Shown here: one piece after another, positions 1 through 34,170 of the stretch
Layout of the letters: the number at the start of each line of letters is the position of its first letter
How positions within the stretch are numbered: the first letter of the stretch is position 1
Virus record (IMG/VR): IMGVR_UViG_3300049044_000033
Location: 222,796 to 286,795 of that record
Strand: one strand, 5' to 3'
Source of the DNA: a virus
Lineage: Duplodnaviria; Heunggongvirae; Uroviricota; Caudoviricetes
DNA: 64,000 bases
Notes under the pieces: generated by a model
Seen by the model: the letters and a program-made list of their open reading frames with translations, nothing else
The model's database searches: none
Told to the model about the DNA's origin: nothing
Translations under genes and position numbers: made by a program

Positions 1-138
1 TTGAATATGGAGGAACAGGAATGAACTTCTTATTCTTTACATCACGCAACTGATACTCGCCGGTCTCGGTGTCCATGATGACCACAACACCGAGAACCTT
101 GCGAGCAATTTCTGCATCAAGATCAGGACCAGGAAGCA
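1..138 (-). CDS. partial CDS (5' part only, runs off the window start), hypothetical
   Basis: Minus-strand ATG at 138-136 overlaps the rpsU stop as TAATG. Open frame MLPGPDLDAEIARKVLGVVVIMDTETGEYQLRDVKNKKFIPVPPYS reaches position 1 without a stop. Confidence 0.3.
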
Positions 139-402
139 TTAGGCAGGCTGCTGACGCAGACGCTTCTTCTGGCGACGAATCGCTTCCTGCTTCTTCTTGC
201 GACGAATCTGACCTTTCGTCTCAACATACTCCTTACGACGCATGTCGCGAATCAGACCTTCCTGAACGACACGACGCTTCAGCGTCCTCATTGCCTGATC
301 CAGGTTCTTCAGTGCCTGTTCTGGGGTATGTGCTGGCTTGACTTCAACAGCCAATCCACGCTTGTGGATTTCACGGCCGTTGCCATTGTAATGACTTCCC
401 AC
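139..402 (-). CDS. rpsU: ribosomal protein bS21 homolog
   Basis: 87 aa, basic and Arg/Lys-rich C-terminus. VEVKPxxxxEQALKxLxxxxxxxGLIRDMRRKEYVE pattern matches the bacterial S21 family. GTG start with AAGGAG 8 nt upstream. Confidence 0.75.
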   Translation of the reverse strand: MGSHYNGNGREIHKRGLAVEVKPAHTPEQALKNLDQAMRTLKRRVVQEGLIRDMRRKEYVETKGQIRRKKKQEAIRRQKKRLRQQPA

Positions 403-520
403 TGTGGGATCTCCTTGTTAGGTTTACTCTACTTGTTTAGCAAAAATGGATAGTAGATTTCAATATTCTGGTTGACGTTCTTGCACTAAGAAACTACGGC
501 ATTCCCGAAAGGAGATTCCA

Positions 521-886
521 ATGTATGCTATTGGCGATATTATCTTTGGTATAAATCTCACCACTGATAGCGATGTCGCAAAGGTCTTTCCGGGATTCGA
601 AGGCGATGAACTTGATGAATTCCTCGAGAGCGGCGAAATCGAAACAAGCTATTCCGGCAACGGTGACCAACCTCGCTATTTCGGCATTGACATGAGTCAG
701 ATTGACGAATGCGATAATGAAAGAGGTTCTGATATTATCGCAAGGTTTCAGGTCACCACACAAGTGAAAGCTGACTGGGACAAAAAGCTTGCAGACTTCC
801 TCGCTAATGAGGAATGGAGTCAGGAACTTCGGGATAAAATCAAAGCTTGTGAGCCAGACGTCTGGCTCCTTTGGGGTTCGAGTTAA
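521..886 (+). CDS. hypothetical acidic protein
   Basis: 121 aa ORF, ATG start preceded by AGGAG-like site, no recognisable motifs. Confidence 0.4.
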   Translation: MYAIGDIIFGINLTTDSDVAKVFPGFEGDELDEFLESGEIETSYSGNGDQPRYFGIDMSQIDECDNERGSDIIARFQVTTQVKADWDKKLADFLANEEWSQELRDKIKACEPDVWLLWGSS

Positions 887-899
887 GAGGGAGAATGAA

Positions 900-1241
900 A
901 TGAAAATCGTAAAGAGTATCGGCGTGGCTCTCGCACTAGCGAGTCTTGGAGCATGTAGCTTCCCTAAGAAGTATGACGAGCAAGTCCGCCAGGTCGAAGT
1001 GGGTGAGACTACTGTGGACGACTACGTGGAACCCGCAGATCTTCACGTAAGCATCACTGACGTTGAATCGGGCAAGAGCTGGGACGTAAATCTCGGCGAC
1101 GAATGTCGTCAGTATCCTCTACCCAAGGGCGAACGCTTTATGACTCGGTTTGACCTGAGCCGTTATGAGCAGCCCAATGAGGACAAGAATACCTATATTG
1201 AGCCGCAGACGACTCCGATCTGGAAATATTTGTGCGGCTAA
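900..1241 (+). CDS. putative lipoprotein
   Basis: ATG at 900 follows AGAGGGAG RBS. N-terminus MKIVKSIGVALALASLGAC has a signal peptide plus lipobox Cys. Confidence 0.5.
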   Translation: MKIVKSIGVALALASLGACSFPKKYDEQVRQVEVGETTVDDYVEPADLHVSITDVESGKSWDVNLGDECRQYPLPKGERFMTRFDLSRYEQPNEDKNTYIEPQTTPIWKYLCG

Positions 1242-1546
1242 TCGTCGGCCTGGCCGCACTCACATTGTTATCAGCATGTGATAACCCATGGGAACCATTG
1301 CCTGATATTCAGAAGGATGTCAAGGTAGTAGCTGTGAATCCTCCAAAGCGTCTATACGTCACGCTAAGGGATGAATCAAATGGTCAGGAGACTAAGGTAT
1401 ATGTGGCGAAACGATGTAACGGCTACGAGAGAGTTCCAGTAGGTTCTCGCTTTAAGATGCCGTTCATTGTATCTAGGCATAAAGAAACCAAAGAGGTCGT
1501 TGTCGAACCTAATAGGAATTTCCTCTACCAAAAGTTCTGTGGGTGA
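1232..1546 (+). CDS. putative lipoprotein
   Basis: GTG start overlaps the upstream stop. N-terminus LIVGLAALTLLSAC has a lipobox. Confidence 0.45.
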   Translation: MRLIVGLAALTLLSACDNPWEPLPDIQKDVKVVAVNPPKRLYVTLRDESNGQETKVYVAKRCNGYERVPVGSRFKMPFIVSRHKETKEVVVEPNRNFLYQKFCG

Positions 1547-1581
1547 TTACTAACTAAGTTCTCCACGAACTAAGGCAGTTA

Positions 1582-1631
1582 TATCCTCCTCGATTTTCTC
1601 CACGGAGATTATTGGGGAGGATATTATTTTG
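1582..1631 (+). terminator. rho-independent terminator
   Basis: Stem ATATCCTCC/GGAGGATAT with an inner TCTCC/GGAGA hairpin, followed by TATTATTTTGG, directly after the CDS ending at 1546. Confidence 0.5.
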
Positions 1632-2198
1632 GAATGGCGAAGCGACAAGTGAACGACAAGTGAGCGCGTTAGTGACTTGCAGTAGGCAAGAAAGACACAC
1701 CTTTATCCCCCGTTACAAAGAAACAGACAAAGAATCTGCTTCCTCATAACGAGGGACTCAGTATCTTGCAGTTAGAGGCTGTCAGATCACTTTGAAGCTA
1801 ACGCTGAATTACTTCAGCACCGGGGTCACATTGTCGGTCTTGCGGTTAGGAATCCTGGGATTGTGGCGGCGTCCTATTAGTAACACTTCAAATTGCTACT
1901 AACAGGCAGAGAGGTAGTTGCGGACGAACTAGAGCTCTCTTCCTACGAAGAGCCAGAGCTGAGGGGAAAGCATATTTGCACCCACAGTTGCCTCTCGGAC
2001 TACCATCCACGTTTTCCCCGTGGACTCTGTTTATACTGGTGCGTCACCCCCGAAGGGATCTCTAATGAGAATGCCAGTTCGCGCCTAGCCGCTACCATTC
2101 CGTCTTCTTCCGGACAAGGTTCAGGTAAAACTAGGATGTCGTGCCTATTTAAAGGCTAATAGAACTGAATAACGCATTAGACATCCCAATGTCAATTA

Positions 2199-2957
2199 TC
2201 AGTTTTGAACCCTACCTCTGCTTTCGATAAGGTCCCCATACATATCAACAAATTCAATCCAGGCCGGACAATCTTTGCCCTTAAGTGGTAATCTGTGAGT
2301 CATAATCACTGAACGCATAGCTAGGATTGCTAACTCAGGTTGAAGAGTCATCGTCCAAGTAATCAGACGGTTCATCTGCTCCCAGAAGAGGATATTGGGT
2401 TTGCCGTATTTCTCGATAAGAGCCTTCAAAGCAGTCGCTGCTTCTCCCACCACTCGGACATTCTCTTCAAAGGTTTCCGCAGGGCCCCTAGCTTGCCCGC
2501 TGAGAACAAGATCCCCTGTGAGCTGCTCGCTATCGAGATCAGTATCAATCTCTTCGAGCAGGGCTTCTAAGCGCTCCTCTTGGGTGCTGCCATCGAGGAA
2601 GACCTTTGGCCAGTGGTACTTGGTAATATTCTTATAGTTCAGAGCCTTGTAGGACTTGCCTTGGAAGACCTTTTCTTCCAGAGGTGCAAGACGAACGGTT
2701 GTTTTGTCATCGGCCAAGATTTCAACATCGTACCGACGACGAATCAATTGCCAGGCATAAACTTGGAAGTTAGGATGGATGCCGCCTAGCCAGAGGGCAA
2801 AGTTGTTAGCCCAGTTGCTATATTCTTCGCCGTTGCGACTTGCGATTGTGATCTTGTCGGCTGCTTCGTTTATAATCTCAAGCTGTACCTGAGGCTCGAT
2901 AGAACCTTCAGGCCATTTGCCTTCAAAAATCTGATCAACTGTTGAGCTAATATCCAT
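2199..2957 (-). CDS. hypothetical protein (252 aa)
   Basis: Long minus-strand ORF, no motif recognised. Confidence 0.5.
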   Translation of the reverse strand: MDISSTVDQIFEGKWPEGSIEPQVQLEIINEAADKITIASRNGEEYSNWANNFALWLGGIHPNFQVYAWQLIRRRYDVEILADDKTTVRLAPLEEKVFQGKSYKALNYKNITKYHWPKVFLDGSTQEERLEALLEEIDTDLDSEQLTGDLVLSGQARGPAETFEENVRVVGEAATALKALIEKYGKPNILFWEQMNRLITWTMTLQPELAILAMRSVIMTHRLPLKGKDCPAWIEFVDMYGDLIESRGRVQN

Positions 2958-3145
2958 AAGAAACCTCCTGTATCACATCACTGTAACACAGGAGGCTCTT
3001 TTGTCAACCCATTGTAGTGAATTCCATACCGTTTCTCGATCCCACATAAGGCTTTCGAGTATCGGTTCTATTGAGATTCAAAACAATGTCGGTTCCCTGC
3101 AATGCGACCCGCAGGCTTTTATCACTTCGCTTGAGAATGTCTGCC

Positions 3146-3541
3146 TTAACTGATCGGCCCGATTCCGTCGAGCTGACCAAGCAGGTCTCCAAAAAGTTCG
3201 TCCGTGTCGTCATGCTTTACTGGCTCCCCATAGCCGAGAGTGAGACGCAGCATATCAACAAATACGCTCCGATCCGATTTCTCTCCAGCGGATCGATCTA
3301 GCATACCTTGGACGACATAAGAGACGATCTTGTAGTCGTTGCGGACATTTTCACATTCAAAATCTACCCCATGGATAGCAAGAACGGTATGAATCTGCGC
3401 ATGAATTCCGGCCGATTTATCTACCGGCTTGCGGAACGAGCTAATCTGAACAACATTGTCCGATGCTACGTTTCCGTTAGCAGCCTCTCCTTTTGTGTCG
3501 TCGCTTTCCATTTTGCGACTTTCTAGATAAACAACAGTCAT
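3146..3541 (-). CDS. hypothetical protein
   Basis: 131 aa ORF. 5' end uncertain. Confidence 0.35.
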   Translation of the reverse strand: MTVVYLESRKMESDDTKGEAANGNVASDNVVQISSFRKPVDKSAGIHAQIHTVLAIHGVDFECENVRNDYKIVSYVVQGMLDRSAGEKSDRSVFVDMLRLTLGYGEPVKHDDTDELFGDLLGQLDGIGPIS

Positions 3542-3741
3542 AAGACACAGCGTCCCCCTTTAGGCTATTCATGTATGGATTTGAAAGGAGCGACCCTCTT
3601 CTCATCCCACAACACAAATCACACCCTCAATTGCGTCTGTGCTGTAAAGGGCAGACTATGCGCTGACCCCTTGGGAGTCAAGCAATTTTAACACAAATGA
3701 AGTGGAAAATTAGAACTTAGGAAAGCTATTAACCCTGTAAG

Positions 3742-3776
3742 AAGCTGAAATCTAAGCGTTTCGCAGCTTTTTTGTA
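3742..3776 (+). terminator. orphan rho-independent terminator (possible sRNA 3' end)
   Basis: AAGCTG...CAGCTT stem followed by TTTTTTG. No plus-strand CDS upstream. Confidence 0.4.
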
Positions 3777-3872
3777 GGTTAATGAAACTGTATTTTTAGA
3801 GTTAACAGGTAACTGGTGAGGTCCCTGTTAACTCTAATGATTAACTAAGGCGTTTCCTAGCTTATCAAGGCG

Positions 3873-4409
3873 TTAGTTTTGCGCACTTTTCTTGCCCGTG
3901 GGAGCAATAATCGCAAACAACTGCCGTTCGCTGCGTGCCACTGGGCGTTCAAACTTGAAATCCTCGAGATAGCTGAGGAATTCTTGCATTACAGATGCAC
4001 CAACATCCAAATGTGTAATCTCACGACCCTTGAACTTGATAACAACCTTGACTTTGTCACCTTCTTCTAGGAAGCCCTGAGCACGCTTTGCCTTGACCTT
4101 GAGGTCATTATTGTCTGTGGTAGGTCTCAGCTGAATTTCCTTCAGCTCAACTCTCGATTCCCTAGACTTCTTAGCAGCTTCCTTGGCACGACGACTCTCG
4201 TCATACTTGAACTTGCCATAGTCCAGAATCTTGCAGACCGGCATACCATTTGCCATGTTGATGGCAACTAGATCCAGTCCTACCTGACGGGCTCGGTTAC
4301 GAGCTTCAATCAGTGAGATAACACCAATCTGCTCGCCGGTGTCACCAATGAGACGTACTTCTTTAGCGCGGATCTGGTCGTTCACCGCATACTTAAAATT
4401 CACAGACAA
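3873..4409 (-). CDS. infC: translation initiation factor IF-3
   Basis: 178 aa. IRAKEVRLIGDTGEQIGVISLIEARNRARQVGLDLVAI...PVCKILDYGKFKYD and the C-domain KVVIKFKGREITH align along the whole length with bacterial IF3. Confidence 0.9.
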   Translation of the reverse strand: MSVNFKYAVNDQIRAKEVRLIGDTGEQIGVISLIEARNRARQVGLDLVAINMANGMPVCKILDYGKFKYDESRRAKEAAKKSRESRVELKEIQLRPTTDNNDLKVKAKRAQGFLEEGDKVKVVIKFKGREITHLDVGASVMQEFLSYLEDFKFERPVARSERQLFAIIAPTGKKSAQN

Positions 4410-4468
4410 TCGTTTCCTTTCATAATGGTAGAGTGGTCAATATATTCCAACCACTCTACCTGTCAATA

Positions 4469-5719
4469 TCATGCTACGTTGGGATTATCATACAGAACAA
4501 CAGGTTCTGCGTTACCCTCAATAACATCCTTTGTGACCTTAACAGTCACAGCACCCTGATCCTTAAGATCAGGAAGTTCGTATTGTACCTTGATGAGACG
4601 CTTTTCAATGACGCTCCTCAAGCCACGCGCACCAGTCTTTCGGGTGATGGCATCAACTGCCACTGCACGGAGAGCGTCTTCGTCAAACTCAAGAGCAATG
4701 TTCTCAAGCTGGAACATTTTGTTGAACTGCTTCACAAGAGCATTCTTAGGTTCAGTGAGAACCTTAATAAGCTGATCCTGGTCTAGCTCTTCCAAGCTAG
4801 TGATGACTGGTAGACGTCCGACTAGTTCAGGGATCAAACCGAACTTCTGAAGGTCTTCTGGTTCAACGCTACCTAGCAGCTTGCTAGACACCTTGTCCAA
4901 ATCATCCTTCACTGAAGCACCGAAACCAATGCTACCCTTGTTCTTGTTCATGCGCTTGGCAATGATTTCATCCAAGCCCACAAAAGCCCCGCCAACAATG
5001 AACAAGATGTTCTTTGTATTCACAACAGCCATTTCGGCGTTTGGATGCTTGCGGTTACCCTGTAGGGGAACTCGAACTTCACTACCTTCGATGATCTTCA
5101 GCAAAGCCTGCTGGACGCCTTCACCCGATACGTCGCGTGAGATGCTAGCCGAGTCGCCCCTGCGAGCCTTCTTATCAACTTCGTCCAAGTAAATGATGCC
5201 ACGCTCGGCCTTTGCAACATCATTGTCACAGACCTGTAGCAAGCGAGAGATAATCGTCTCAACGTCGTCACCCACGTAACCTGCTTCAGTAAGCGAAGTA
5301 GCGTCAGCGATTGTGAAGGGAACATCAAGCAACTTTGCGATGCTCTTTGCCATTAGGGTCTTACCCGAACCCGTTGGACCGAGGAGCAAGATGTTGCTCT
5401 TCTCAAGTTCAACGTCATCAACCACTGGGTTGGCAAGACGCTTATAGTGATTGTGGACAGCCACAGCCATGACCATTTTGGCATCATTTTGACCGATGAC
5501 ATACTGATCTAGGAATTCACGAATCTGACGAGGGCTTGGGATGGTGCCATCCTTAATAGCCATCTTAGTAGAAGATGAATCATCTTCTTTCAAGATATCA
5601 GCGCAGAGCTGAACGCAGTCATTACAGATGAAGACGTCAGGTCCAGCAATAAGCTTCTGGACATGCTCCTGCTTCTTTCCGCAGAAGCTGCAGGTTAGTG
5701 ATTTCTTATTCTCGCTCAT
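4469..5719 (-). CDS. clpX: ATP-dependent Clp protease ATP-binding subunit ClpX
   Basis: 416 aa. N-terminal C4 zinc finger (CSFCGK...CNDC), Walker A GPTGSGKT, ClpX-type AAA+ body including the LDEVDK Walker B region. Confidence 0.9.
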
Positions 5720-5830
5720 TACCGACCTCGAGTATTCAGTTTTACCTGATATTTAGTTTTTGTCGATCAAGGGACCCGAGGGCGTTTCCGAAGGGCACCT
5801 TTACTTTATGCCCTTCGGAACTAGATATCA

Positions 5831-7105
5831 TTATAATCCTGGTCGATTCTGTCGCATACTTTCTACGACCTGCACGATGTCATTGACGATGTCTGGATTG
5901 AGCTCCAGTAGCTCAATGATCAATTCCTTCGGCGTCCTGGGATCATCCTCAAAGGACGGTGTGTTGGATTCTGGTTTCCATGCGTTGATAGCATTCTGCT
6001 GCTGCGTCAGCTGGGCTTCCCACTGCTGTAGGAGTTCACGCTCGTCATTCAAACGAGCTTCCATGTCGAGCAGCTCTTGGTGCGCCTTTGAGAGACTCTG
6101 CTGATCAGACTGAATAGAGGCAGATACCGAAGCGTATTCTTGTGCAAATTCCTGACGCTCTTTGTCAAACGCCGCACGAGCTTCCGCGAGGTCGTTCTTG
6201 AGCTCATCATACTTTGTATCTTGCTCAATTAGGTCCTCAAGCTTCTCCTCAAGCTTCTCCTCAAAAGTCTCAGCTTCTTCCTCAACAGCTTCAATAGGAT
6301 GATCTAGAAGATCAGATACTGGAACCATTTCGACCGGAGGTATGACAGCTTCGACCTTAGTCGCTTTAGCTTTCTCCTCCCTGAGCTTTTGAAGAGATAT
6401 GCTACCCATGATAAACATAGAGATAGCAAGGGGATCAAACGCAGCCATGATAAGGGAAATGATAATCCTGATTGCTTTCTCACCGTCCATACCAAGAGCT
6501 TCGGCAATGAACTTTGCCACACCGAGTTCGCCCTCTACATTACCAGTTTTGATCTTTAGCGGAACAAGCTTCTGAGTAATGTCATTGATCACAGTATTGT
6601 TGGCGTCAATGGACTTCTGAATCTCTGCGGCTTCTTTCTTCGACTGGTTAGAAGCACGAAGACCTGCACGAGCATTGCCCTCTAGAACCTTATCGGTGAT
6701 CTTGCTAATTTGACCCAAGCGAGCTTCTAAGCGAACGTTCTCATCTTGCTTTTGCTTCAACTGGGTTTCCAACTGTGCGACCTGAATACCAAGACCTGCG
6801 AGGGGAGCCTGTTGCTCAAGGTGTCCCTTACTCAAATAGCCGTAGATACCAAGGCTCGTTATAGCCATGAGACACGCGACAAAAAAGCAAAGAAGACCTC
6901 GGAAGTACCAAGGTGCTGAAGGATTTCTCCAGTTAGTGTGAATCCACTTAGCAGTCACGATCTTGCCGACCTCAAGGGCGGCGCCCATAATGACTACGCC
7001 CCAGAAGGTAGCCGCAAAGATGCTACCTAGACCTACTAGGGAGAAATAAGCCGCTACACCACTGATGATTGCTGCTACGAAAAAGATGAATAAGATGAAT
7101 GCCAT
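5831..7105 (-). CDS. membrane protein with long coiled-coil region
   Basis: 424 aa. About four N-terminal TM helices, then Glu/Lys/Gln-rich heptad-like segments. Confidence 0.5.
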   Translation of the reverse strand: MAFILFIFFVAAIISGVAAYFSLVGLGSIFAATFWGVVIMGAALEVGKIVTAKWIHTNWRNPSAPWYFRGLLCFFVACLMAITSLGIYGYLSKGHLEQQAPLAGLGIQVAQLETQLKQKQDENVRLEARLGQISKITDKVLEGNARAGLRASNQSKKEAAEIQKSIDANNTVINDITQKLVPLKIKTGNVEGELGVAKFIAEALGMDGEKAIRIIISLIMAAFDPLAISMFIMGSISLQKLREEKAKATKVEAVIPPVEMVPVSDLLDHPIEAVEEEAETFEEKLEEKLEDLIEQDTKYDELKNDLAEARAAFDKERQEFAQEYASVSASIQSDQQSLSKAHQELLDMEARLNDERELLQQWEAQLTQQQNAINAWKPESNTPSFEDDPRTPKELIIELLELNPDIVNDIVQVVESMRQNRPGL

Positions 7106-7183
7106 AAATGCCTCTAGGGTTCTGAAAAGGGTATATAGACTACCGGAGTAGACTGTCTACTTATCTCTTCAGAACCCAGAGGT

Positions 7184-7606
7184 TCAGGCGAATAAAGCCT
7201 TTAGCTTCTGCCAGAAAGAAAGCTTTGGCTTAGGAGTGAGGTCCGTAAGACCATTATAGCGGTCAAGGAACTTCCATGAGATGTTCTTAGCGCCGAAGAC
7301 TTCCAGGGCCTTGAATGCCATCTGGGGATCGAGATCGCTACAGGTGTAGATATCGAACTCGATAAATGGCTGCTCACATTCGTCCCAAGTGTGAAGAATC
7401 ATGTGCGAAGTTGTGATGTAAACACCAGCGGTCATGCCGCGATTGCCTACCTGCTCACAATATTCCGCAGATGCTTCCTTGAGGACTTCCATGTCCATAG
7501 CGTGAACGATATCGGTGAGCCATTGCTCGACGAATCGCTCATCCTTCTTCAATGGTGGATTGTCCACGTGAGCGTGGACGATAAGGTGCTTGTGAAGCTT
7601 TGCCAT
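7184..7606 (-). CDS. speD: S-adenosylmethionine decarboxylase proenzyme (small pyruvoyl-dependent class)
   Basis: 140 aa. ITTSHMILHTWDE resembles the ESHIxIHTWPE self-cleavage/active-site motif of class 1 AdoMetDC. Confidence 0.7.
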   Translation of the reverse strand: MAKLHKHLIVHAHVDNPPLKKDERFVEQWLTDIVHAMDMEVLKEASAEYCEQVGNRGMTAGVYITTSHMILHTWDECEQPFIEFDIYTCSDLDPQMAFKALEVFGAKNISWKFLDRYNGLTDLTPKPKLSFWQKLKALFA

Positions 7607-7693
7607 TATAGACTCCTAATCAAAAGATCGCGCTGTGCGAATAAGCGTGTCTCAGGAAGATTAGGAGATCCGCTTCTTCCTTCGTTTCACCTT

Positions 7694-8161
7694 TCAGAAA
7701 AACTTTGCCGTAGCGGTGATATTTATCGGATTAGGAATTTTATCCCAACCATCCCGCAACAGGTCATTAGAATTCACTGGCTTGAAGCCAGCTTCGCGAT
7801 CTAACGACCAGGTACAATGATAGGTGCCCCCGTCCGGACGAACGGTAGAACCATCGACTTCTACGACTAAGCACTCGATGCCTGCGTCATTACAAGCATA
7901 GCCCACGACTCGAAAGTTGCTGGCTTCGGGCAGAGGTTGATCAGACTTTGCACCACGCTTGAACGTGATGTGATGTCCAACAAACTCCTCAAACTTGGGA
8001 GGGAAAATAGCTGCCAATTGAGAACGACTCGACGCGCTCAATTCGAAGGCCTGGTAACCTCCCTTTGGCTTGCCAATGATCTCATTTGCTTTCAATTCTT
8101 CCTCCAAAGTAGAGCATTGTCTATGCGAATTTTTCCAACCTGTGTCAACATCAATCTTCAA
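7694..8161 (-). CDS. hypothetical protein with two HxTx motifs (2H phosphoesterase-like?)
   Basis: 155 aa. GHHITFK and YHCTWSL, about 60 aa apart, resemble the duplicated H-x-T/S-x catalytic motifs of the LigT/2H (and Acb1-like) fold. Weak call. Confidence 0.3.
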   Translation of the reverse strand: MKIDVDTGWKNSHRQCSTLEEELKANEIIGKPKGGYQAFELSASSRSQLAAIFPPKFEEFVGHHITFKRGAKSDQPLPEASNFRVVGYACNDAGIECLVVEVDGSTVRPDGGTYHCTWSLDREAGFKPVNSNDLLRDGWDKIPNPINITATAKFF

Positions 8162-8246
8162 ACCGATAAATTAACCTGTATCCAATGTGAAAATTGACAC
8201 GTTGGGTTCTAAATCCATAACGTAAAACAAAGATCAAGGGTTAACC

Positions 8247-10118
8247 ATGTCCAACAATATTAAGAAACTTACAGATTACCAACATGCGCGTCTCAGGACA
8301 GAAATGTACCTGGGTAGTCGTGCGCCACATACACAGACGATTCTTCAGATTGTAGATGGCAATCCTCAACCTGTTGAAATGACCTGGGTGCCTGCACTAT
8401 ATACGGCTTTTCGTGAGGTTCTCGATAACGCACTCGACGAAGTGATTGGCCATGGACATGGTAGCACTGTTAGAGTTAGCTACAATCCTTTGAATCGTGA
8501 AATGTCTATCGAGGATGACGGTCGCGGTATTCCGATTGCATATGATGAAGCACATAAGATGCACCTAGCAACTCTTGTTATGACCGAAGCTCGTGCGGGT
8601 CGTAACTTTGAGGAACGTGGCGAAGTAGCAGGTACTAATGGTATCGGTGCTAGCGTGGTGAACTTCTGCTCCGAGTTTTTCCGCCTTGACATCCAAAAGG
8701 ACGGCGAACGTTTCCAGCAAGAGTTCACTCAGGGCAATGCAGTCTTTGGTGACGAGTTACAGTTTGGCAAGGCAAAGCTGTCCAAGAAGACAGGCACAAA
8801 TGGCACTAAGGTAACCTTCAAACTGAGTAGCGAAGTATTCCCTGATCTAACGCTGCCGGAAGAGTTCATTCAGAGTCGTGTTGTTGAAGTTGCAATCTGT
8901 AACCCACTGGTCAAGATCTTCTACAATGGCAAGCAGATCAAGGTTAAGCCACGAGCTGAGCAGACCCTCTTCCCCGGTAGGAAGCCAATATCCATTGAGA
9001 TCAAGGAAGGTAGCTTCCGTAGCCGTTTTTGGATTGTGCCTAACTGGACAACTGGCGGCGATCATGTTCACACCATCGTGAATAACATTCCGGCTTTCAA
9101 CGGCGGTGTCCACATCGACACTTTCCGTCGACTCTTCTATGGTAATTTGCTAACTGCGCTTGAGCGCGAAAGCAAGCGTCGTAAGCTCAGCCCGAACCGT
9201 AGTGATGTTACCGAAGGTGTTCTGATCTACAACATCACAAATATGCACGGTCCTAACTTTGATAGTCAGTCCAAGACACGACTAATCAATGAAGAAGTCG
9301 GTAAGACGATCAGGACCTATCTAGAAGATCCAGAACTCTACAAGGACTTCATCAAGAAGAACAAGGACTGGATTGAGGAAATCTATAAGCGTTGTGCTGA
9401 ACGCACGATGAAGAAGGATGCCGGTGATCTCGCTAGAGCGGCCAAGAAGAACCTGCGCAACAAGGTTCCCAAGCTTATGGACGCAAGTGGCAAGGATCGC
9501 TCTAAGTGTATTCTCTTCCTAGCTGAGGGTGACTCGGCTATTGCGGGCATGGGCAGCGTTCGTGATCCTGACTATCATGGCGGGCTTGGCATGAGGGGTA
9601 AGGTTCTCAACGTCAATGGCGAATCTCCTAAGAAGGTTGTCGATAACAAGGAACTTGCAGACATTATGAGCTGCTTGGGTCTGATTATCGGTCAGAAGGC
9701 AGACCGCAAGGAACTTCGCTACGGCAAGGTTTATGTGGCTCATGATATGGATCCAGACGGACTTAATATTGGCGCTCTCTTGATCAATTTCTTCCACACT
9801 TATTGGCCTGAGTTGTTTGAAGATCAGGATAATCCGTTCGTCCACATTTTCCGCACTCCCTTTATCATCGCAGAGAAGGGTAAGTCGCGCAAATACTGGT
9901 ATGCTCATAACTACCAGGACTTTAAGCCAGAAGACTACAGCGGATGGACGATCACTCGCGCAAAGGGTCTCGGCACTCTTACTCGTGAGGACTGGGAATA
10001 CTCTCTCAAGAATCCGGAAGTCTACCCAGTTGTGGATGATGGCAAGATGGGTGAGACACTGGACCTGATCTTTAACGGTAAGCGGTCAGACGATAGAAAA
10101 ACCTGGATTGGCCTTTGA
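8247..10118 (+). CDS. DNA topoisomerase II large subunit (T4 gp39-like, GyrB-type ATPase + TOPRIM)
   Basis: 623 aa. GHKL ATPase motifs (EVLDNALDE, GTNGIG) and TOPRIM LFLAEGDSAIAG. The TOPRIM region is contiguous with gene 39, so the T4 gp60 equivalent appears fused. Confidence 0.85.
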   Translation: MSNNIKKLTDYQHARLRTEMYLGSRAPHTQTILQIVDGNPQPVEMTWVPALYTAFREVLDNALDEVIGHGHGSTVRVSYNPLNREMSIEDDGRGIPIAYDEAHKMHLATLVMTEARAGRNFEERGEVAGTNGIGASVVNFCSEFFRLDIQKDGERFQQEFTQGNAVFGDELQFGKAKLSKKTGTNGTKVTFKLSSEVFPDLTLPEEFIQSRVVEVAICNPLVKIFYNGKQIKVKPRAEQTLFPGRKPISIEIKEGSFRSRFWIVPNWTTGGDHVHTIVNNIPAFNGGVHIDTFRRLFYGNLLTALERESKRRKLSPNRSDVTEGVLIYNITNMHGPNFDSQSKTRLINEEVGKTIRTYLEDPELYKDFIKKNKDWIEEIYKRCAERTMKKDAGDLARAAKKNLRNKVPKLMDASGKDRSKCILFLAEGDSAIAGMGSVRDPDYHGGLGMRGKVLNVNGESPKKVVDNKELADIMSCLGLIIGQKADRKELRYGKVYVAHDMDPDGLNIGALLINFFHTYWPELFEDQDNPFVHIFRTPFIIAEKGKSRKYWYAHNYQDFKPEDYSGWTITRAKGLGTLTREDWEYSLKNPEVYPVVDDGKMGETLDLIFNGKRSDDRKTWIGL

Positions 10119-10390
10119 TAAACGATCTTGGACCTAATTATGTTTATGTGAGCTTTAAAGGGGAGGATGAGGATTCCCTTGAAAGCCAGATATACCATTG
10201 GTTTAAGCCAACTGGTCACTGGATTCCATATCAGAAACTGATTTGGTCAGATGCACCTCGTGGCATAGACCGAAAACTCCTTGGCAAATGGTATAGCGTT
10301 GTACGCAATACAAAAGGTTTTATTTGGGACTACGAAGATTACGATCCCGATGTGGTTCTCATGTTCAAACTAACTTGGGGCGGGGCCTGA
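10115..10390 (+). CDS. FKLxWGG-family small protein, array member 1
   Basis: TTG start overlaps the topo II stop. C-terminus VLMFKLTWGGA. Confidence 0.55.
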   Translation: MINDLGPNYVYVSFKGEDEDSLESQIYHWFKPTGHWIPYQKLIWSDAPRGIDRKLLGKWYSVVRNTKGFIWDYEDYDPDVVLMFKLTWGGA

Positions 10391-10644
10391 TGGAAGTTTC
10401 TCTATGGTCCTTTGGAATTCATCCAACTACAAATGAATCCCTCGGGTGTGTGACTACTGACTCACCTGAGGTGTTTAAACTCTGGTTAAACTCTGCCTGT
10501 CCTAATCACCAGGTGATACTAGAATATGAACGCTCAGAAGGTGCCATTCGAGAAGAGGGTGGCCACCTTTGGAGATTGAATGTTAAGATGTTTTCTCGAA
10601 AAGAGGCAGTTCTATTCAAATTAAGATGGCATGATAACAAATGA
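10390..10644 (+). CDS. FKLxWGG-family small protein, array member 2
   Basis: ATG in TGATG overlap with member 1. C-terminus AVLFKLRWHDNK. Confidence 0.55.
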   Translation: MEVSLWSFGIHPTTNESLGCVTTDSPEVFKLWLNSACPNHQVILEYERSEGAIREEGGHLWRLNVKMFSRKEAVLFKLRWHDNK

Positions 10645-10895
10645 CCGAATGGTTTTCATCTGGACGTCTAGAAGTATCAGGCTTCTACCTTAATGAATCT
10701 GGTTGGCTTGTTAATCTCACGACAACTGATCCACTTGAAATTGAAGACTGGTGTTGTGATAACATTAGAGATGACTGGGAAATAAGAAAGATGCAAATGA
10801 GGAGCAGGTCTAAAGATCAGGAATGGTATGTCACCATCAAATTAGATTCTGACCGAGATTATATGCTTCTCAAACTTCGCTGGCAAAACGTATGA
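10641..10895 (+). CDS. FKLxWGG-family small protein, array member 3
   Basis: ATGA overlap. C-terminus YMLLKLRWQNV. Confidence 0.55.
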   Translation: MTEWFSSGRLEVSGFYLNESGWLVNLTTTDPLEIEDWCCDNIRDDWEIRKMQMRSRSKDQEWYVTIKLDSDRDYMLLKLRWQNV

Positions 10896-11161
10896 ACAAT
10901 CTTGATGAAACTTGGTATGAACCTTCGCCGGATGATCATATCGCGTATATCACTAGGCAGAGGATCATAGAGATCGGGAACAACCCTTCTGGTGATTTCC
11001 TCTTAATGGGAATCGCATATCGTCAAGGTTTCAGCATTTTATCCCGATGGTGTAGAGTTAATTGTAAGGACCCCGGCAAACCTGTTAATGTGCGCGGTGA
11101 GACAGGTTGGGCGTTTAACAACAAGGATGATGCCCTTCTCTTTAAGCTAACTTGGGGTTGA
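10892..11161 (+). CDS. FKLxWGG-family small protein, array member 4
   Basis: ATGA overlap. C-terminus DALLFKLTWG. Confidence 0.55.
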   Translation: MNNLDETWYEPSPDDHIAYITRQRIIEIGNNPSGDFLLMGIAYRQGFSILSRWCRVNCKDPGKPVNVRGETGWAFNNKDDALLFKLTWG

Positions 11162-11163
11162 GA

Positions 11164-11547
11164 ATGAAACGCACAAATACCCTCTATGATCTAGAAACCA
11201 CTGCCAAGTTCTGGTTGCTCCAACTGCGCGGTACAAAGATCCAAATTAACCGAGATAATGTTTCTTCTGCTTATGAGTGGTGTAGCTCTAATGTGAAGAA
11301 GCAATGGGCATGGCATCACAAGCCTGATCTAATTGATGATAAGACTCTAGTTCAAAATCTCAGATACCATTTCACCAGAGAATATACTGAAGATCAAGCT
11401 CTTAGTCGAATGGCTGAGGAAATAAGCGAAGATCTAGATCATGAGATCCTTTTCAACTTAGGAGTGGTTGCTTACAAGCAGGCATTTTTCTGGTTTGAAG
11501 ATGATAATGAGGCTATGCGGTTTAAGCTGTCGTGGGGTGAAAGGTGA
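11164..11547 (+). CDS. FKLxWGG-family small protein, array member 5
   Basis: ATG 3 nt after the previous stop. C-terminus EAMRFKLSWGER. Confidence 0.55.
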   Translation: MKRTNTLYDLETTAKFWLLQLRGTKIQINRDNVSSAYEWCSSNVKKQWAWHHKPDLIDDKTLVQNLRYHFTREYTEDQALSRMAEEISEDLDHEILFNLGVVAYKQAFFWFEDDNEAMRFKLSWGER

Positions 11548-11834
11548 AAGACTACGATTTCGTTACAGTCTATGTGCCTTACGCCGGTAGGACTGGTCGA
11601 ACTGAATTTAGCCATTTGATCTCTGAGGAAGTCATTGCTTGGCTAGATGAAAACATAGGTAAGGGAACAATCTCCTATCGTCACTGGCTCCTCGAGCACG
11701 ACAATGATACCTATGCTTGGACCTATAAGGGAACTTCCTACGACCCCTCGACCAACTATACCAAGATAGTTCGCGAGTTCTGTTTCCGTAACATGGATGA
11801 TGCTACTCGGTTCAAATTAGTCTGGGGCGGCTAA
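11544..11834 (+). CDS. FKLxWGG-family small protein, array member 6
   Basis: GTGA overlap. N-terminus DYDFVTVYVPYAG resembles member 7. C-terminus DATRFKLVWGG. Confidence 0.55.
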   Translation: MKDYDFVTVYVPYAGRTGRTEFSHLISEEVIAWLDENIGKGTISYRHWLLEHDNDTYAWTYKGTSYDPSTNYTKIVREFCFRNMDDATRFKLVWGG

Positions 11835-11841
11835 TTAATAG

Positions 11842-12141
11842 ATGAAAGCAGTAAATTACGAAGTCGTCACAGTCTACGTTCCTAATTCACCTAAAATTGG
11901 TAAGATGAATGGTAAGGATTCTTTCCTTTGTGCTGAGCTAATCGAATGGCTTACTATGATGTATGGCTATCAGGCTCCAAACAGCTATCATTTCATTGCC
12001 AACTTAGATAATAATGCCTATGGTTGGGCTTGGGGTCGTTCCTCAGAACCAATGTTCGTTCAATCCGATCCTTGCTGGACTTTCATGTTCAAGAAAGAGT
12101 CAGATGCCCTCATGTTCAAGCTAACTTGGGGTGGACATTGA
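11842..12141 (+). CDS. FKLxWGG-family small protein, array member 7
   Basis: N-terminus NYEVVTVYVPNSP. C-terminus DALMFKLTWGGH. Confidence 0.55.
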   Translation: MKAVNYEVVTVYVPNSPKIGKMNGKDSFLCAELIEWLTMMYGYQAPNSYHFIANLDNNAYGWAWGRSSEPMFVQSDPCWTFMFKKESDALMFKLTWGGH

Positions 12142-14092: not shown

Positions 14093-14337
14093 CAGTCTAC
14101 TGTGCTAAAACGGGCCAGGAGCTCATAGAAATCTCCGTAAACTTATGGGATAAGGGCTTCAAGTTTAAGGCTGATGAATTCTTCGACTTAGTAGATAGTT
14201 GGGCCATTAAACAAGGTTGGTCTATTCCTCGAGATTGTCACCATATTAGTTCAACCCATGGTTACCAACTCCGCTTGCAAACCTTCTGCTTCAGAGACCC
14301 TAACAAGGCTATGATGTTTAAACTAGCCTGGGCTTAA
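14074..14337 (+). CDS. FKLxWGG-family small protein, array member 15
   Basis: N-terminus MDGQAVTVYCAK. C-terminus KAMMFKLAWA. Confidence 0.5.
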   Translation: MDGQAVTVYCAKTGQELIEISVNLWDKGFKFKADEFFDLVDSWAIKQGWSIPRDCHHISSTHGYQLRLQTFCFRDPNKAMMFKLAWA

Positions 14338-14345
14338 CCAGTTTA

Positions 14346-14375
14346 TTGACATGCCTCCTGTGCGCTAAGTAAAAT
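14346..14375 (+). promoter_or_regulatory. sigma70-like promoter candidate upstream of topo II medium subunit
   Basis: TTGACA, then an 18 nt spacer, then TAAAAT. Located between the array end and the 14400 start. Confidence 0.3.
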
Positions 14376-14399
14376 ACGCACAGAAACAAAGGCATCTCA

Positions 14400-15749
14400 A
14401 TGACTCAAAATAGCTCTGATTATATCCTAGATACTTCACGTGAATATTCTATCTACGTCTGCGAATCTCGCGCCATCCCTAAAGTGACCGATGGTCTTAA
14501 GGATGCCCAACGCAAAGCACTCTGGCTTGTAAAGGGCAAAGCTGATAAGATCAAGACTGTTTCCCTTGCTGGTGAAATGATCTCAAGCGGTCTTTACCTA
14601 CATGGCGACGCATCGGCAGCATCTTCGATCTCTATGTTGGCAGCACCCTATGTGAACAATATTCCTTTGCTAGATGGCATTGGATCGTTCGGTACTCGTG
14701 TTGCGCCCGTAGATGGCATTGGTGCACCTCGTTACACCTACGTAAAGCGCGGTAAAGCAGCTCAGGAACTCATGTTTCCTGATATGGATATTGTCCCAGT
14801 TAAGGAGAACTATGATGGATCTACCATCGAGCCTCAGCACTTTCTTCCTCTTATTCCCACGGTTCTTCTCAACGGAGTCAGTGGCATCGCTGTCGGTTGG
14901 AGCACTGAAATTCTACCCCGCAGCTTTAAGAGTCTCCTCGACGCTACTCTAATGATCTTGGATGGGAAGAAGATCAAGCGTATCCCTCCTTCCTACGAAC
15001 TCTACAAAGTCGGTGTAAAGCACCTTGAGGAAAACTCTTGGGAGTTTACAGGTAAACTCAACATCGTTGATACCTCAACGATCAAGATCACTGAGTTACC
15101 GCCTGAACTGACTTTAGAGAAGTTCAAAGAGCGTTTGAATACGTTTGAGGATGAGAACAAGATTTCCTCCTATACTGATCGCTCTACTGACACCATCGAT
15201 ATTACGATCAAGATGGCACGAGGCGCCTGTAAGGGTTGGCACGAAACTAGAGCTATTGAGTATTTCAAGCTCAAGCAAAAGAAGTCAGAGCGTATCGTTG
15301 TCATCGACTGGAATGGCACTTCTATTCGCCAATATGAGAACGCTGAGAAGCTCATTGAAGATTTCGTGGCTTGGCGTTTGAACTGGTATGTTGTTCGTTA
15401 TGAGAACAAGGTAGCCAAAGATGATTATGAACTTGGCTTCTGGAAGGGTGTGAAGCTTTGCTTTGATAGCAAGCTGCCTGCTCGTTTGGGCACAATTAAG
15501 AGTCGAGCCGAACTAGATGCTGATGTTCAGACCACTACTGGAAAGCTTAACTTAGATTCAAAGCGTATTGACCGCATCGTAAATCTACCTGCTCATCGCT
15601 GGACCAAGGATGCGTATGGTGATGTGTTGGCTAAGATCAAGGAACTTGAAGCCAATATTAAGGAATACAAAGCCATCCTCAAGGATCCTGAACGTCGCAA
15701 GGCAATCTACCGTGAAGAGCTCGAAGCTCTGAAGAAAGTTAGGTTTTGA
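14400..15749 (+). CDS. DNA topoisomerase II medium subunit (T4 gp52-like, GyrA-type cleavage/religation domain)
   Basis: 449 aa. N-terminus ESRAIPKVTDGLKDAQRKALW is typical of GyrA/ParC/gp52 with the winged-helix and active-site Tyr region. Confidence 0.8.
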   Translation: MTQNSSDYILDTSREYSIYVCESRAIPKVTDGLKDAQRKALWLVKGKADKIKTVSLAGEMISSGLYLHGDASAASSISMLAAPYVNNIPLLDGIGSFGTRVAPVDGIGAPRYTYVKRGKAAQELMFPDMDIVPVKENYDGSTIEPQHFLPLIPTVLLNGVSGIAVGWSTEILPRSFKSLLDATLMILDGKKIKRIPPSYELYKVGVKHLEENSWEFTGKLNIVDTSTIKITELPPELTLEKFKERLNTFEDENKISSYTDRSTDTIDITIKMARGACKGWHETRAIEYFKLKQKKSERIVVIDWNGTSIRQYENAEKLIEDFVAWRLNWYVVRYENKVAKDDYELGFWKGVKLCFDSKLPARLGTIKSRAELDADVQTTTGKLNLDSKRIDRIVNLPAHRWTKDAYGDVLAKIKELEANIKEYKAILKDPERRKAIYREELEALKKVRF

Positions 15750-17835: not shown

Positions 17836-18075
17836 CTAACTTGTCAACTTGATGACTATCGCATAGCGACGTTCAATCTTCTCGATTGCTTCCAAGTAAG
17901 GCTTAGCTGCCTCGTCTGCGGCTTCCTTTTTGGCTTGATTCATCTCGCGCTTGAGATCCTGAATCTGACTCCAAAGAAGACGAGCCGCCCCTTCTTCCGC
18001 TAACGCACCTGCTTCGCCCGTAGAAGACGACATCAATTCCTTACGGACCTTTTCTAGAACCGAACCTGTCTTCAT
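17836..18075 (-). CDS. hypothetical small protein
   Basis: 79 aa, coiled-coil-like. Start overlaps the upstream stop. Confidence 0.4.
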   Translation of the reverse strand: MKTGSVLEKVRKELMSSSTGEAGALAEEGAARLLWSQIQDLKREMNQAKKEAADEAAKPYLEAIEKIERRYAIVIKLTS

Positions 18076-18650
18076 ACAAACTCTGCGTTAACTCCGCATT
18101 GACGGAGGTAGTTGACGCTTGACATGATCTTAGTCTGCCAAGACGATTGCTCAGTGCCTTCTGGCTTCACGGGTAGCGTGATATCTACCCAGTTACCTAC
18201 TGCGCTCTCAACCGCGTGTTTGGCATCAACCAATCCCATACCAGTCACAGCGCGAAGTTCCTTGATCGCATTAATCTTCTGGTACGAGTTATTGTGTGGA
18301 TCAATGCGGATCCGCAGATGACGAACGTTTGGGTATTTGTTGGACACAATGCCGAGAATCAAACGAGCCTTCCAGTCCTTACCCAAGACAGGAACCAGTG
18401 CCTCCATAGCATCAACCGCAGTATCGCGAGTGTAATGCTGCTTGATAGCCCGTAAGAACGCCGCAGAAGCCTCATCGAGGAATGCGAAACCGTCATCGGG
18501 TGTATCTGGATCAATCAGTGGCACAAAAACTCCTTTACCTGCACTCTCATTAGCACCTAGACTACCTGTGTCAACCCTTTCATATAAGTATTGTGCTGGA
18601 AAGAATAGCTTGTTAATATGAAGTATGGTTTGGACGTTTAAACAACGCAT
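18072..18650 (-). CDS. protein with ribosomal bL12 (L7/L12) C-terminal domain
   Basis: C-terminal about 70 aa, KINAIKELRAVTGMGLVDAKHAVESAVG...VKPEGTEQSS, matches the bL12 CTD signature ([25 protein letters not shown]). The N-terminal about 120 aa are unrelated. 5' end uncertain. Confidence 0.6.
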   Translation of the reverse strand: MRCLNVQTILHINKLFFPAQYLYERVDTGSLGANESAGKGVFVPLIDPDTPDDGFAFLDEASAAFLRAIKQHYTRDTAVDAMEALVPVLGKDWKARLILGIVSNKYPNVRHLRIRIDPHNNSYQKINAIKELRAVTGMGLVDAKHAVESAVGNWVDITLPVKPEGTEQSSWQTKIMSSVNYLRQCGVNAEFV

Positions 18651-19832: not shown

Positions 19833-19862
19833 GGTATGCCCATTAACTCAAAAGAGAAAGGT

Positions 19863-19895
19863 AGAGCCCGCCGTTTCCGGCGGGCTCTTTGTTTC
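19863..19895. terminator. bidirectional rho-independent terminator
   Basis: 10 bp GC stem GAGCCCGCCG/CGGCGGGCTC with loop TTTC, followed by TTTGTTTCT. Separates convergent genes. Confidence 0.6.
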
Positions 19896-19912
19896 TGCAA
19901 AGCTGAGAAAGC

Positions 19913-20632
19913 TTACTTCTTAAAGTTCTCAATACAAGCTTTAATCTTGTCTATTGACAAGTTTCCAACATCAACGCTGAATACCTTACGGATACTATCA
20001 GCTGCTTGGGCAAAGAAGAGATCTTCCGTCATCGTCATTGGGTTAGTTTCTACTGGATCAACATCGCCGTAGTAGACGGCAGAATTAGCGCCATGTTCGA
20101 AGCATTCAACGCTCACTAGACGAACGTCAGGATTGACCGCATAACGACCGAGCTCGCCACTCTTCATCTTCTCAAGAAGCTCAACCGACTTCTCGTAAAC
20201 CAGCTTGGCGGTCAATTCACAGCCAACACCAGGAACAATTCGGAGAGCACAGAGACGACCGCGTTCGTAGGGCTTGGCAATCGTGCTATTGCCAACCTGG
20301 TCAGTTTCAACGCTAGACGGCTTCACACCATCATAGTCATCAATCGTAGATGCACGAGCAAGGGTCTTAAAGGTATCAAGAGCCGGATCATCCTCAGCAA
20401 CCAAGATCGTATGATCGAACATATAGTCCAGGTATTCCTTAATAGGCTTCATTCCGCCGAAATCAAAACACCAGTTCTTTTCATCAAGCGTCTCAGATTC
20501 CCAGACGAACTTGAAGCCTAGGCTGTAGCCGTGAAGGGTAGAGCAGTGTGAGTGATTAGCTTTCCATTGACGGAAGCAGCAAGATAGTCCACGGTCGTTG
20601 CCGTAGGTTTTAGTAGATTGAAACTTTGCCAT
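19913..20632 (-). CDS. T-fold protein, QueD/6-pyruvoyl-tetrahydropterin-synthase-like
   Basis: 239 aa. HSHCSTLHGYS resembles the CxxxHGH zinc motif of PTPS/QueD. Confidence 0.45.
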   Translation of the reverse strand: MAKFQSTKTYGNDRGLSCCFRQWKANHSHCSTLHGYSLGFKFVWESETLDEKNWCFDFGGMKPIKEYLDYMFDHTILVAEDDPALDTFKTLARASTIDDYDGVKPSSVETDQVGNSTIAKPYERGRLCALRIVPGVGCELTAKLVYEKSVELLEKMKSGELGRYAVNPDVRLVSVECFEHGANSAVYYGDVDPVETNPMTMTEDLFFAQAADSIRKVFSVDVGNLSIDKIKACIENFKK

Positions 20633-22755: not shown

Positions 22756-23087
22756 TTGCCACCGAACGTGAGCTTAAACATCGCTGCGATATCCCCTTTA
22801 GACTTGGGAAAAAGGAAGAAGGTGAAATCCCGATAAGAGCTATCAAGCATCATGAGAACTGGCAGATTATGCTGTTCATAAAACTCAGTAGCCTCTGGTC
22901 CACAAATCCTATCGGCCGTATCCGGATAGTCCGTTCTCGGTCGAAGGACAGTGAGTTCGTATCCCTTAATTGGAACGACATGGAATTGTTGCTCCATAGT
23001 GGATACGAACTCAGTATAATCGCAATGGTCAGTCATTCGACCTCCAACAGTTCTTCCTTCGACTTGGACCAGCGCGAGAAGGTCCAA
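22752..23087 (-). CDS. FKLxWGG-family small protein (second cluster)
   Basis: C-terminus AAMFKLTFGGK. Confidence 0.5.
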   Translation of the reverse strand: MDLLALVQVEGRTVGGRMTDHCDYTEFVSTMEQQFHVVPIKGYELTVLRPRTDYPDTADRICGPEATEFYEQHNLPVLMMLDSSYRDFTFFLFPKSKGDIAAMFKLTFGGK

Positions 23088-34052: not shown

Positions 34053-34124
<72 letters not shown>

Positions 34125-34170
34125 CATGTTGTGTGCTCTCTTTGTAGCACCTACATACCTATTTAGCAAT

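Follow-up and report, generated by a model that had tools for sequence, protein, structure and literature searches.

Why a bacteriophage should carry translation initiation factor IF3 (infC), the small-subunit ribosomal protein bS21 (rpsU) and the unfoldase ClpX close to one another is the question raised by one end of a 64,000-nt stretch of viral DNA (positions 222,796 to 286,795 of IMG/VR record IMGVR_UViG_3300049044_000033), which we refer to as the window. The window belongs to an uncultured jumbo phage of ~462 kb that is related to the cultured phages Atu_ph07, Phosso and AP-J-162. We find that the three proteins carry the family signatures and motifs that their names imply, that their genes keep a conserved order across these relatives, that IF3 falls in a phage clade of its own, and that all three genes are under purifying selection. 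The explanation we favor, with a probability of about 0.8, is an ancestral acquisition followed by retention of the neighborhood, such that initiation factors and proteolysis would be run by the phage itself. The elements on which this explanation turns are the following:

139-402, minus strand: rpsU-like gene for bS21 (87 aa, GTG start)
3873-4403, minus strand: infC, encoding IF3 (176 aa, both domains, conserved GTG start)
4439-4466, minus strand: promoter candidate for infC, sigma-70-like (TTGACA, 16 nt, TATATT)
4469-5719, minus strand: clpX, encoding an AAA+ unfoldase (416 aa)

All three assignments of the original prediction, which had been made from the letters of the DNA, are borne out at these coordinates by scores above curated family cut-offs. 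IF3 is a full-length, two-domain protein that covers both Pfam profiles end to end (IF3_N, 5.8e-27, 1-70 of 70; IF3_C, 2.9e-26, 1-85 of 86), reaches 178 bits against TIGR00168 infC (cut-off 60) and displays the basic interdomain linker KYDESRRAKEAAKKSRESR. The small, very basic bS21 is recognized by Pfam Ribosomal_S21 (E=3e-11, 43.2 bits vs 27) and by TIGR00030 (45.1 bits vs 28.95), and its best PDB matches are bS21 chains (E=7e-7); compared with E. coli bS21, it has a short insertion and an N-terminal extension of ~16 aa that is conserved to the same degree as the core (0.87 vs 0.84). ClpX scores 602 bits against NF003745 (cut-off 359), 567 against TIGR00382 (cut-off 371) and 506 against E. 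coli ClpX (8e91_A), and the alignment with the latter contains every motif sought, namely the four zinc cysteines, Walker A, Walker B (DE), GYVG, RKH, the IGF ClpP-docking loop, GARGLR and the sensor-II arginine.

Relatives had to be traced through proteins, because a megablast of window positions 1-12000 against deposited phages returned no nucleotide-level match. The window IF3 has a counterpart of 100% identity (P0001) on a 462,455-bp metagenome contig of JGI sample 3300071358, whose gene calls agree with the window gene for gene; another contig, IMGVR_UViG_3300034072_000926, measures 465,259 bp, and the genomes of Phosso and Atu_ph07 measure 469 and 490 kb. PHROGs assignments elsewhere in the window include a split T4-type topoisomerase II, ribonucleotide reductase, a DnaB helicase and virion structural proteins, and leave no doubt that this is phage DNA. 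For IF3 and ClpX alike, the best phage protein match is Sinorhizobium phage Phosso (48.6% and 63.9% identity), and Agrobacterium phage Atu_ph07 (Polybotosvirus) matches at 44% and 55%. Across Atu_ph07, Phosso and AP-J-162, identities to the window range over 44-49% for IF3, 55-64% for ClpX, 48-51% for bS21 and 60-69% for the topoisomerase II large subunit (TopoL). A genome of ~450-500 kb and the shared order topoisomerase II/ClpX/IF3/bS21/ClpS mark this phage as Atu_ph07-like; with no megablast match over the first 12 kb and protein identities of 44-69%, nucleotide identity does not place it in the same genus.

In Atu_ph07 and Phosso, as here, ClpX adjoins IF3 beside divergently oriented topoisomerase II genes with bS21 further downstream, and eight uncultured members of the clade, with IF3 identities as low as 58%, keep the same gene order. 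What the window has in common with Atu_ph07, Phosso and AP-J-162 extends to both topoisomerase II subunits, a divergent small gene (the orf155 homologue), ClpX, IF3, bS21 further downstream and then ClpS, whereas the window's subclade differs from them by a SpeD-like gene and orf424 inserted upstream of ClpX and by other cargo between IF3 and bS21. The ClpX-IF3 adjacency itself is seen at IF3 identities as low as 44%. ClpX is absent from the vicinity of IF3 in five other huge-phage contigs, so the linkage is specific to the Atu_ph07-like lineage. The description of the three genes as a block needs some loosening: all are real and on the minus strand, but they do not form a tight operon, since bS21 lies 3.5 kb from IF3, with two unknown genes, three opposite-strand genes and a candidate RNA gene between them.

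Among 185,579 species genomes, the nearest cellular IF3 proteins are 40-48% identical to the phage protein and come from Alphaproteobacteria (most frequently), Bacillota, Chloroflexota and Acidobacteriota. In a neighbor-joining (NJ) tree with 100 bootstraps, the clade composed of the window subclade, the Phosso subclade and Atu_ph07 held no named cellular IF3 in 100/100 bootstraps, and this exclusion of cellular sequences is the one robust result of the tree. It favors a divergent phage clade over a host-derived copy, the alternative that the original prediction had left to phylogeny. A word-based search with bS21 likewise returned 57 relatives, all of them clade members, Atu_ph07 gp713 or unnamed metagenome proteins, and no cellular bS21; these close homologues sit on large metagenome contigs, plus gp713, which is annotated merely as hypothetical. 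Against two to three relatives, dN/dS is 0.07-0.09 for both bS21 and IF3 and 0.04-0.05 for ClpX, similar to that of the topoisomerase, although these values are approximate because dS is near saturation. Judged by these comparisons, bS21, IF3 and ClpX are old, maintained phage genes under strong purifying selection. That they are instead recent host-derived passengers, or an assembly contamination with no phage role, we regard as wildly improbable. Part of the IF3 and ClpX matches in the phage collection do lie on short unannotated contigs that are possibly bacterial, but the genes discussed here are flanked by phage genes, on contigs of 435-470 kb that derive from many samples, and the idea is already contradicted by cellular IF3 identities of at most 48%, the separate phage clade, dN/dS below 0.1 and the conserved synteny.

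If the phage maintains its own IF3, the next question is how that protein is made. Its start codon is the GTG at 4403, which is invariant in a start-region alignment of seven phages and is preceded in them by an AAAGGA resembling a Shine-Dalgarno sequence at a distance of 9-11 nt (11 nt in the window). A TTG at 4409 was rejected as an alternative start, as it is unconserved whereas the GTG is invariant, and a 7-codon mini-ORF whose stop overlaps the GTG (ATG at 4423), considered as a coupling device, was judged to be a chance occurrence because its ATG is missing from most relatives in the same alignment. The best promoter-like site in 8.3 kb (TTGACA-16-TATATT, 11/12 matches) begins 3 nt past the clpX stop, and all seven aligned phages share its TTGAC box together with a TAnnnT hexamer; promoter-like sites across the region as a whole are no more frequent than expected by chance. 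Overlapping this site is an inverted repeat (4431-4456, minus strand) with equivalents, seen by eye in the start-region alignment, in relatives L004 and L005 and in Phosso. Its sequence varies among phages with pairing kept, in stems of 7-13 bp, and it could be a terminator or attenuator of clpX, or an operator.

In E. coli, infC is part of the infC-rpmI-rplT operon and is autoregulated through an AUU start codon; an AUU-class start and linkage to rpmI-rplT typify bacterial infC, although the protein family does not require them. The phage protein resembles the E. coli factor in its two-domain build (133 bits to E. coli IF3) and in keeping the key residues R99, K110, R133 and R168, and it differs by clade-specific changes at 113, 116 and 147. 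At the level of the gene, infC of the phage has a conserved GUG and no start codon of the AUU class, and gene calls of the window and its source contig show no rpmI or rplT (L35/L20) downstream, from which we infer that the classic autoregulation probably does not apply. With a GUG start and none of the AUU type, IF3 would be free to rise above the host set point. The further argument of the original prediction, that a phage IF3 is meaningful in a genome with GTG and TTG starts, stands as far as the starts go, with non-ATG codons frequent (4 of 11 called genes), but is weak as an argument. IF3 accepts AUG, GUG and UUG as starts; the codons that it disfavors are AUU, AUC, CUG and the like.

Whether such a protein should still bind the 30S subunit was approached by aligning it residue by residue with E. 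coli IF3 (8jsg_A). The phage protein retains Y75, R99, D106, K110, R133, H137 and R168 of E. coli and has lysine in place of R112, R129 and R131. Eight C-domain arginines (R99, R112, R116, R129, R131, R133, R147 and R168) are reportedly implicated in 30S binding by Petrelli et al. in 2003. Six of these eight positions are basic in the phage protein, R99, R133 and R168 being identical and R112, R129 and R131 being lysine; the other two are non-basic throughout the phage clade, with glycine at R116 and glutamate, aspartate or serine at R147 (glutamate in the window). An arginine found clade-wide at position 113 may compensate for the glycine at 116. Homology limited to one domain, or inactivating substitutions in 30S-binding residues, had been named beforehand as fatal to the case for a working IF3; what we see is both domains, a basic residue at six of the eight positions, and two exceptions that are clade-wide and under purifying selection.

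These findings are consistent with the following course of events. An ancestor of the lineage would have gained infC, rpsU and clpX long ago, and its descendants would have kept the neighborhood topoisomerase II/ClpX/IF3/variable cargo/bS21/ClpS, with the three as working genes rather than passengers recently taken from a host. With a promoter of its own and GUG as its start codon, infC could escape autoregulation, and IF3 could exceed the host set point. Phage bS21, with its conserved N-terminal extension, and phage IF3 would attach to the 30S platform of the host ribosome, where together they may keep subunits free and initiation-competent through a long infection with host expression shut down, and possibly bias initiation toward phage messages. 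Reprogramming of initiation toward phage transcripts, the boldest element of the original prediction, is speculation.

A more modest account would stop at maintenance: phage copies replace host IF3, bS21 and ClpX after shut-off, initiation specificity is unchanged and phage mRNA enjoys no favor. We take this account seriously, at somewhat below even odds. It would fit an IF3 that keeps most canonical residues, a ClpX that is near-canonical (506 bits to E. coli ClpX) and the presence of other replacement-type genes, including a CCA-adding enzyme, an L7/L12-like protein and aminoacyl-tRNA synthetases, specific for serine in one relative and for threonine in Atu_ph07, but the clade-specific N-terminal extension of bS21 and the IF3 changes at 113, 116 and 147 suggest a modified function. 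Nor is it a clean competitor, as it overlaps with the ancestral-acquisition explanation, which spans both maintenance and bias.

The proteolytic arm of that explanation depends on what ClpX works with. The original prediction had noted an unfoldase without an adjacent ClpP, and we confirm that no clpP lies in the window; Atu_ph07 and Phosso each encode a ClpP ~64% identical to that of E. coli, far from clpX, and ClpP occurs together with IF3 on Phosso-like metagenome contigs. The retained IGF loop means that phage ClpX should dock on ClpP, and the partner would be either host ClpP or a phage ClpP encoded elsewhere, as in the relatives. Past bS21, at a distance of 2.5-5.5 kb, a gene for the adaptor ClpS is found on the source contig (~5 kb beyond the left edge of the window), in Atu_ph07 and in five relatives, so that Clp-related genes bracket the translation genes, and ClpX together with phage ClpS could give the phage its own control of regulated proteolysis. 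A NUDIX hydrolase often comes after ClpS in these genomes; in relatives L004 and L184, ClpS lies at 19842-20099 and 14272-14574, respectively.

ClpX may alternatively act apart from ClpP, as a chaperone or remodeler for phage DNA replication or virion assembly, its adjacency to infC then being a historical accident. Its place beside topoisomerase II genes in all relatives agrees with such a role, as does the promoter-like site that separates clpX from infC, and others have proposed functions of this kind, in replication by analogy with lambda O (the AP-J-162 authors) or in virion assembly or translocation (Iyer et al.). The strict conservation of both the IGF and RKH loops, the nearby ClpS and the ClpP encoded by relatives speak instead for degradation, and an adjacency kept down to 44% IF3 identity counts against an accident. 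On balance, we consider this alternative unlikely.

Several points weigh against the ancestral-acquisition explanation. We found no experimental work in the literature on any phage IF3. The adjacency of ClpX and IF3 is no proof of a shared function, and the two genes appear to be separately promoted. The non-basic residues at R116 and R147, two of the eight positions, could alter 30S binding. The tree is distance-based, its cellular sample consists only of the 32+3 sequences closest to the query, and the IF3 subgroups drawn by hand were not recovered as exact splits; the approximate nature of the dN/dS values counts here too. Finally, clpP is not confirmed for this genome, as tblastn found none in ~305 kb made up of the window and clade loci. 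In a wider protein search, Phosso ClpP mainly drew bacterial ClpPs (~75% identity), and in a scan of viral contigs for ClpP, none of the 80 loci listed came from the window subclade.

The rarity of phage IF3 relative to bS21, on which the original prediction placed weight, is a fair statement, with tblastn finding IF3 in 102 of 50,697 phage records, some of whose short unannotated members with IF3 or ClpX may be bacterial contamination. It is not a new observation. PHROGs has a family for phage IF3 (phrog_9787) as well as one for phage S21, and IF1, IF3 and S21 with N-terminal extensions were described in huge phages (Al-Shayeb et al. 2020), the IF3, ClpX and ClpA of Atu_ph07 were given by accession (Iyer 2021), and the paper on Sinorhizobium phage AP-J-162 reports clpX directly beside IF-3 and topoisomerase genes, with the proposal that S21, L7/L12 and IF-3 may intercept host translation. 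Phage bS21 is also the subject of Mizuno et al. (2019), cited by Al-Shayeb et al., and of Chen et al. (2022). The present phage resembles the huge phages of Al-Shayeb et al. (2020) in that these, at over 200 kb, have IF3, N-extended S21 and L7/L12, likewise proposed to intercept host translation; it differs from the five other IF3-bearing contigs mentioned above in having ClpX nearby. The arrangement of ClpX, IF3 and S21, and the idea that it redirects translation, have therefore been published for related giant phages, and as regards the proteins we add little that is new beyond showing that what is published for the Atu_ph07-like jumbo phages also holds for a large clade of uncultured relatives. 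Several details should be useful experimentally, among them the old phage-specific IF3 and bS21 lineages, the GUG start of infC, the ClpP-docking loop and the clade-specific changes on the IF3 C-domain surface. As cultured relatives exist (Atu_ph07, Phosso and AP-J-162), the idea of ribosome redirection by phage IF3 and bS21 is directly testable.

What is new at this locus is an RNA, a by-product of the analysis that may outweigh the proteins in interest: it matches no known family, holds a conserved position in the putative module, and is the item most worth pursuing.

1640-2160 (approximate ends), minus strand: structured RNA, unannotated (~520 nt)

It occupies a gap (~1547-2198) with no gene call on the source contig, and coding potential was rejected for 1640-2160 for want of a consistent ORF. 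Between relatives, the gap is 70-83% identical at the nucleotide level, where synonymous sites are saturated. The RNA itself comprises a 5' domain with an invariant 25-mer (2095-2119), a variable middle and a 3' domain (1671-1921) supported by a covariance model, with invariant blocks alternating with hairpins that bear compensating changes. Exact-word scans of viral and metagenome collections supplied further members, and the RNA is now found in 12 clade sequences, 11 of them full-length and one truncated at a contig end.

In the 3' domain of eight sequences, 91.5% of pair cells are paired, as opposed to 39-43% in slid controls, and 26 pairs show double changes (4-11 when slid); none of 500 shuffles reaches the observed values. 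A covariance model built from these eight recognized two further copies over their full length, in divergent members of the clade that had escaped the word scans. Each lies on the same strand in the same gap without genes, and they keep 53/56 and 50/56 pairs at ~65% identity. With these added, the ten-sequence alignment reaches 93.9% paired cells (37-43% slid) and 27 double-change pairs (5-11 slid), again with 0/500 shuffles reaching the observed values, although this alignment leans toward structure because it was fitted to the model. The 5' domain varies too little for covariation to be assessed. Folding of the short variants at full length suggests ~117 pairs and a long-range closing helix.

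The covariance model found no match in one clade member (L186) and a weak match only in another (L185). In Atu_ph07 and Phosso, the syntenic unannotated gaps contain one matching hairpin only, which scores on the opposite strand too; a homologue in these two phages is tentative, and the hairpin may be a terminator on the opposite strand. Rfam (release 15, 4227 families) gave no match at E<=1 in 1-9000 and no hit at a gathering threshold, and at E<=10 on 1500-2300 it gave only hairpin-type chance matches of 14-24 bits (thresholds 39-142); ARAGORN found no tmRNA. RNase P RNA, SRP RNA and tmRNA, considered by eye, were rejected because the motif order does not fit and Rfam and ARAGORN were empty. 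In being large (450-520 nt), multi-helix, phage-encoded and noncoding, the RNA is like GOLLD and ROOL of Rfam, but its sequence and fold are different and the Rfam search gives no support for membership. No report of a ~520-nt RNA of this kind was found in the literature. Its covariation is strong, and we regard it as a candidate new class of structured RNA.

It is by position that this RNA might be connected to translation. One could imagine ClpX, IF3, the ~520-nt RNA, bS21 and ClpS as a single module in which the RNA cooperates with the IF3 and bS21 of the phage at the small subunit of the host ribosome, perhaps by mimicking the platform, by scaffolding assembly or by regulating the delivery of the two proteins; we think this a long shot, though if true, the phage would be adding an RNA component to the proteins with which it takes over translation initiation. 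Two copies of a CUGCAAG-type motif in the RNA (1765-1778 and 1675-1686) change in concert in relative L187, a hint that both have the same partner. Just outside the RNA, a strong hairpin with a T-run on the plus strand (1576-1629) is probably the terminator of the convergent small plus-strand genes at 521-1546, and it sets an outer limit to the RNA gene.

The remaining features of the first 10 kb are:

2199-2957, minus strand: orf252, with no Pfam, NCBIfam or PHROG match, cargo of low conservation between IF3 and the RNA
3146-3541, minus strand: orf131, with no Pfam, NCBIfam or PHROG match (dN/dS 0.24 vs L004)
5831-8161, minus strand: three genes upstream of clpX, namely orf424 (membrane, coiled-coil), a SpeD-like AdoMet decarboxylase (7184-7606) and orf155
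8247-10118, plus strand: topoisomerase II large subunit (phrog_543, 3e-171)

In the direction of minus-strand transcription, the first 8 kb read orf155, the SpeD-like decarboxylase, orf424, ClpX, IF3, orf131, orf252, the ORF-free stretch and bS21, with the three small plus-strand genes (521-1546) preceding bS21, between it and the ORF-free stretch. The topoisomerase II large subunit is divergent from the block and is a synteny anchor common to Atu_ph07 and Phosso, which also share orf155 (phrog_36523). Identity of orf252 to its subclade relatives is only 33-55%, and in clade member L185 the interval between IF3 and bS21 holds a seryl-tRNA synthetase (9680-10951); the interval hence seems to be a slot of varying translation-related cargo.

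Other genes connected with translation lie further along the window. A 192-aa ORF at 18072-18650 (minus strand) encodes part of the C-terminal domain of ribosomal protein L7/L12 (32 bits in Pfam, where the cut-off is 25.9; only profile positions 11-37 of 67 are covered) and probably corresponds to the L7/L12 of AP-J-162, gp556. A CCA-adding tRNA nucleotidyltransferase is encoded at 23033-24187 (minus strand; PolyA_pol head domain, 1e-33), as in Atu_ph07, and the sole tRNA gene in the 64 kb is a tRNA-Thr at 34053-34125 (minus strand).

The window also has auxiliary metabolic genes. On the minus strand, 19913-20632 encodes a 6-pyruvoyl-tetrahydropterin synthase (QueD-like) and 29153-30352 a tellurite-resistance-like protein (phrog_5890). 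The SpeD-like S-adenosylmethionine decarboxylase (7184-7606, minus strand) is very conserved (dN/dS 0.02-0.05). In the stretches of Phosso that we examined, a glutathionylspermidine synthase lies near the IF3-bS21 region and an ornithine/lysine decarboxylase near clpP, which points to polyamine metabolism in this lineage.

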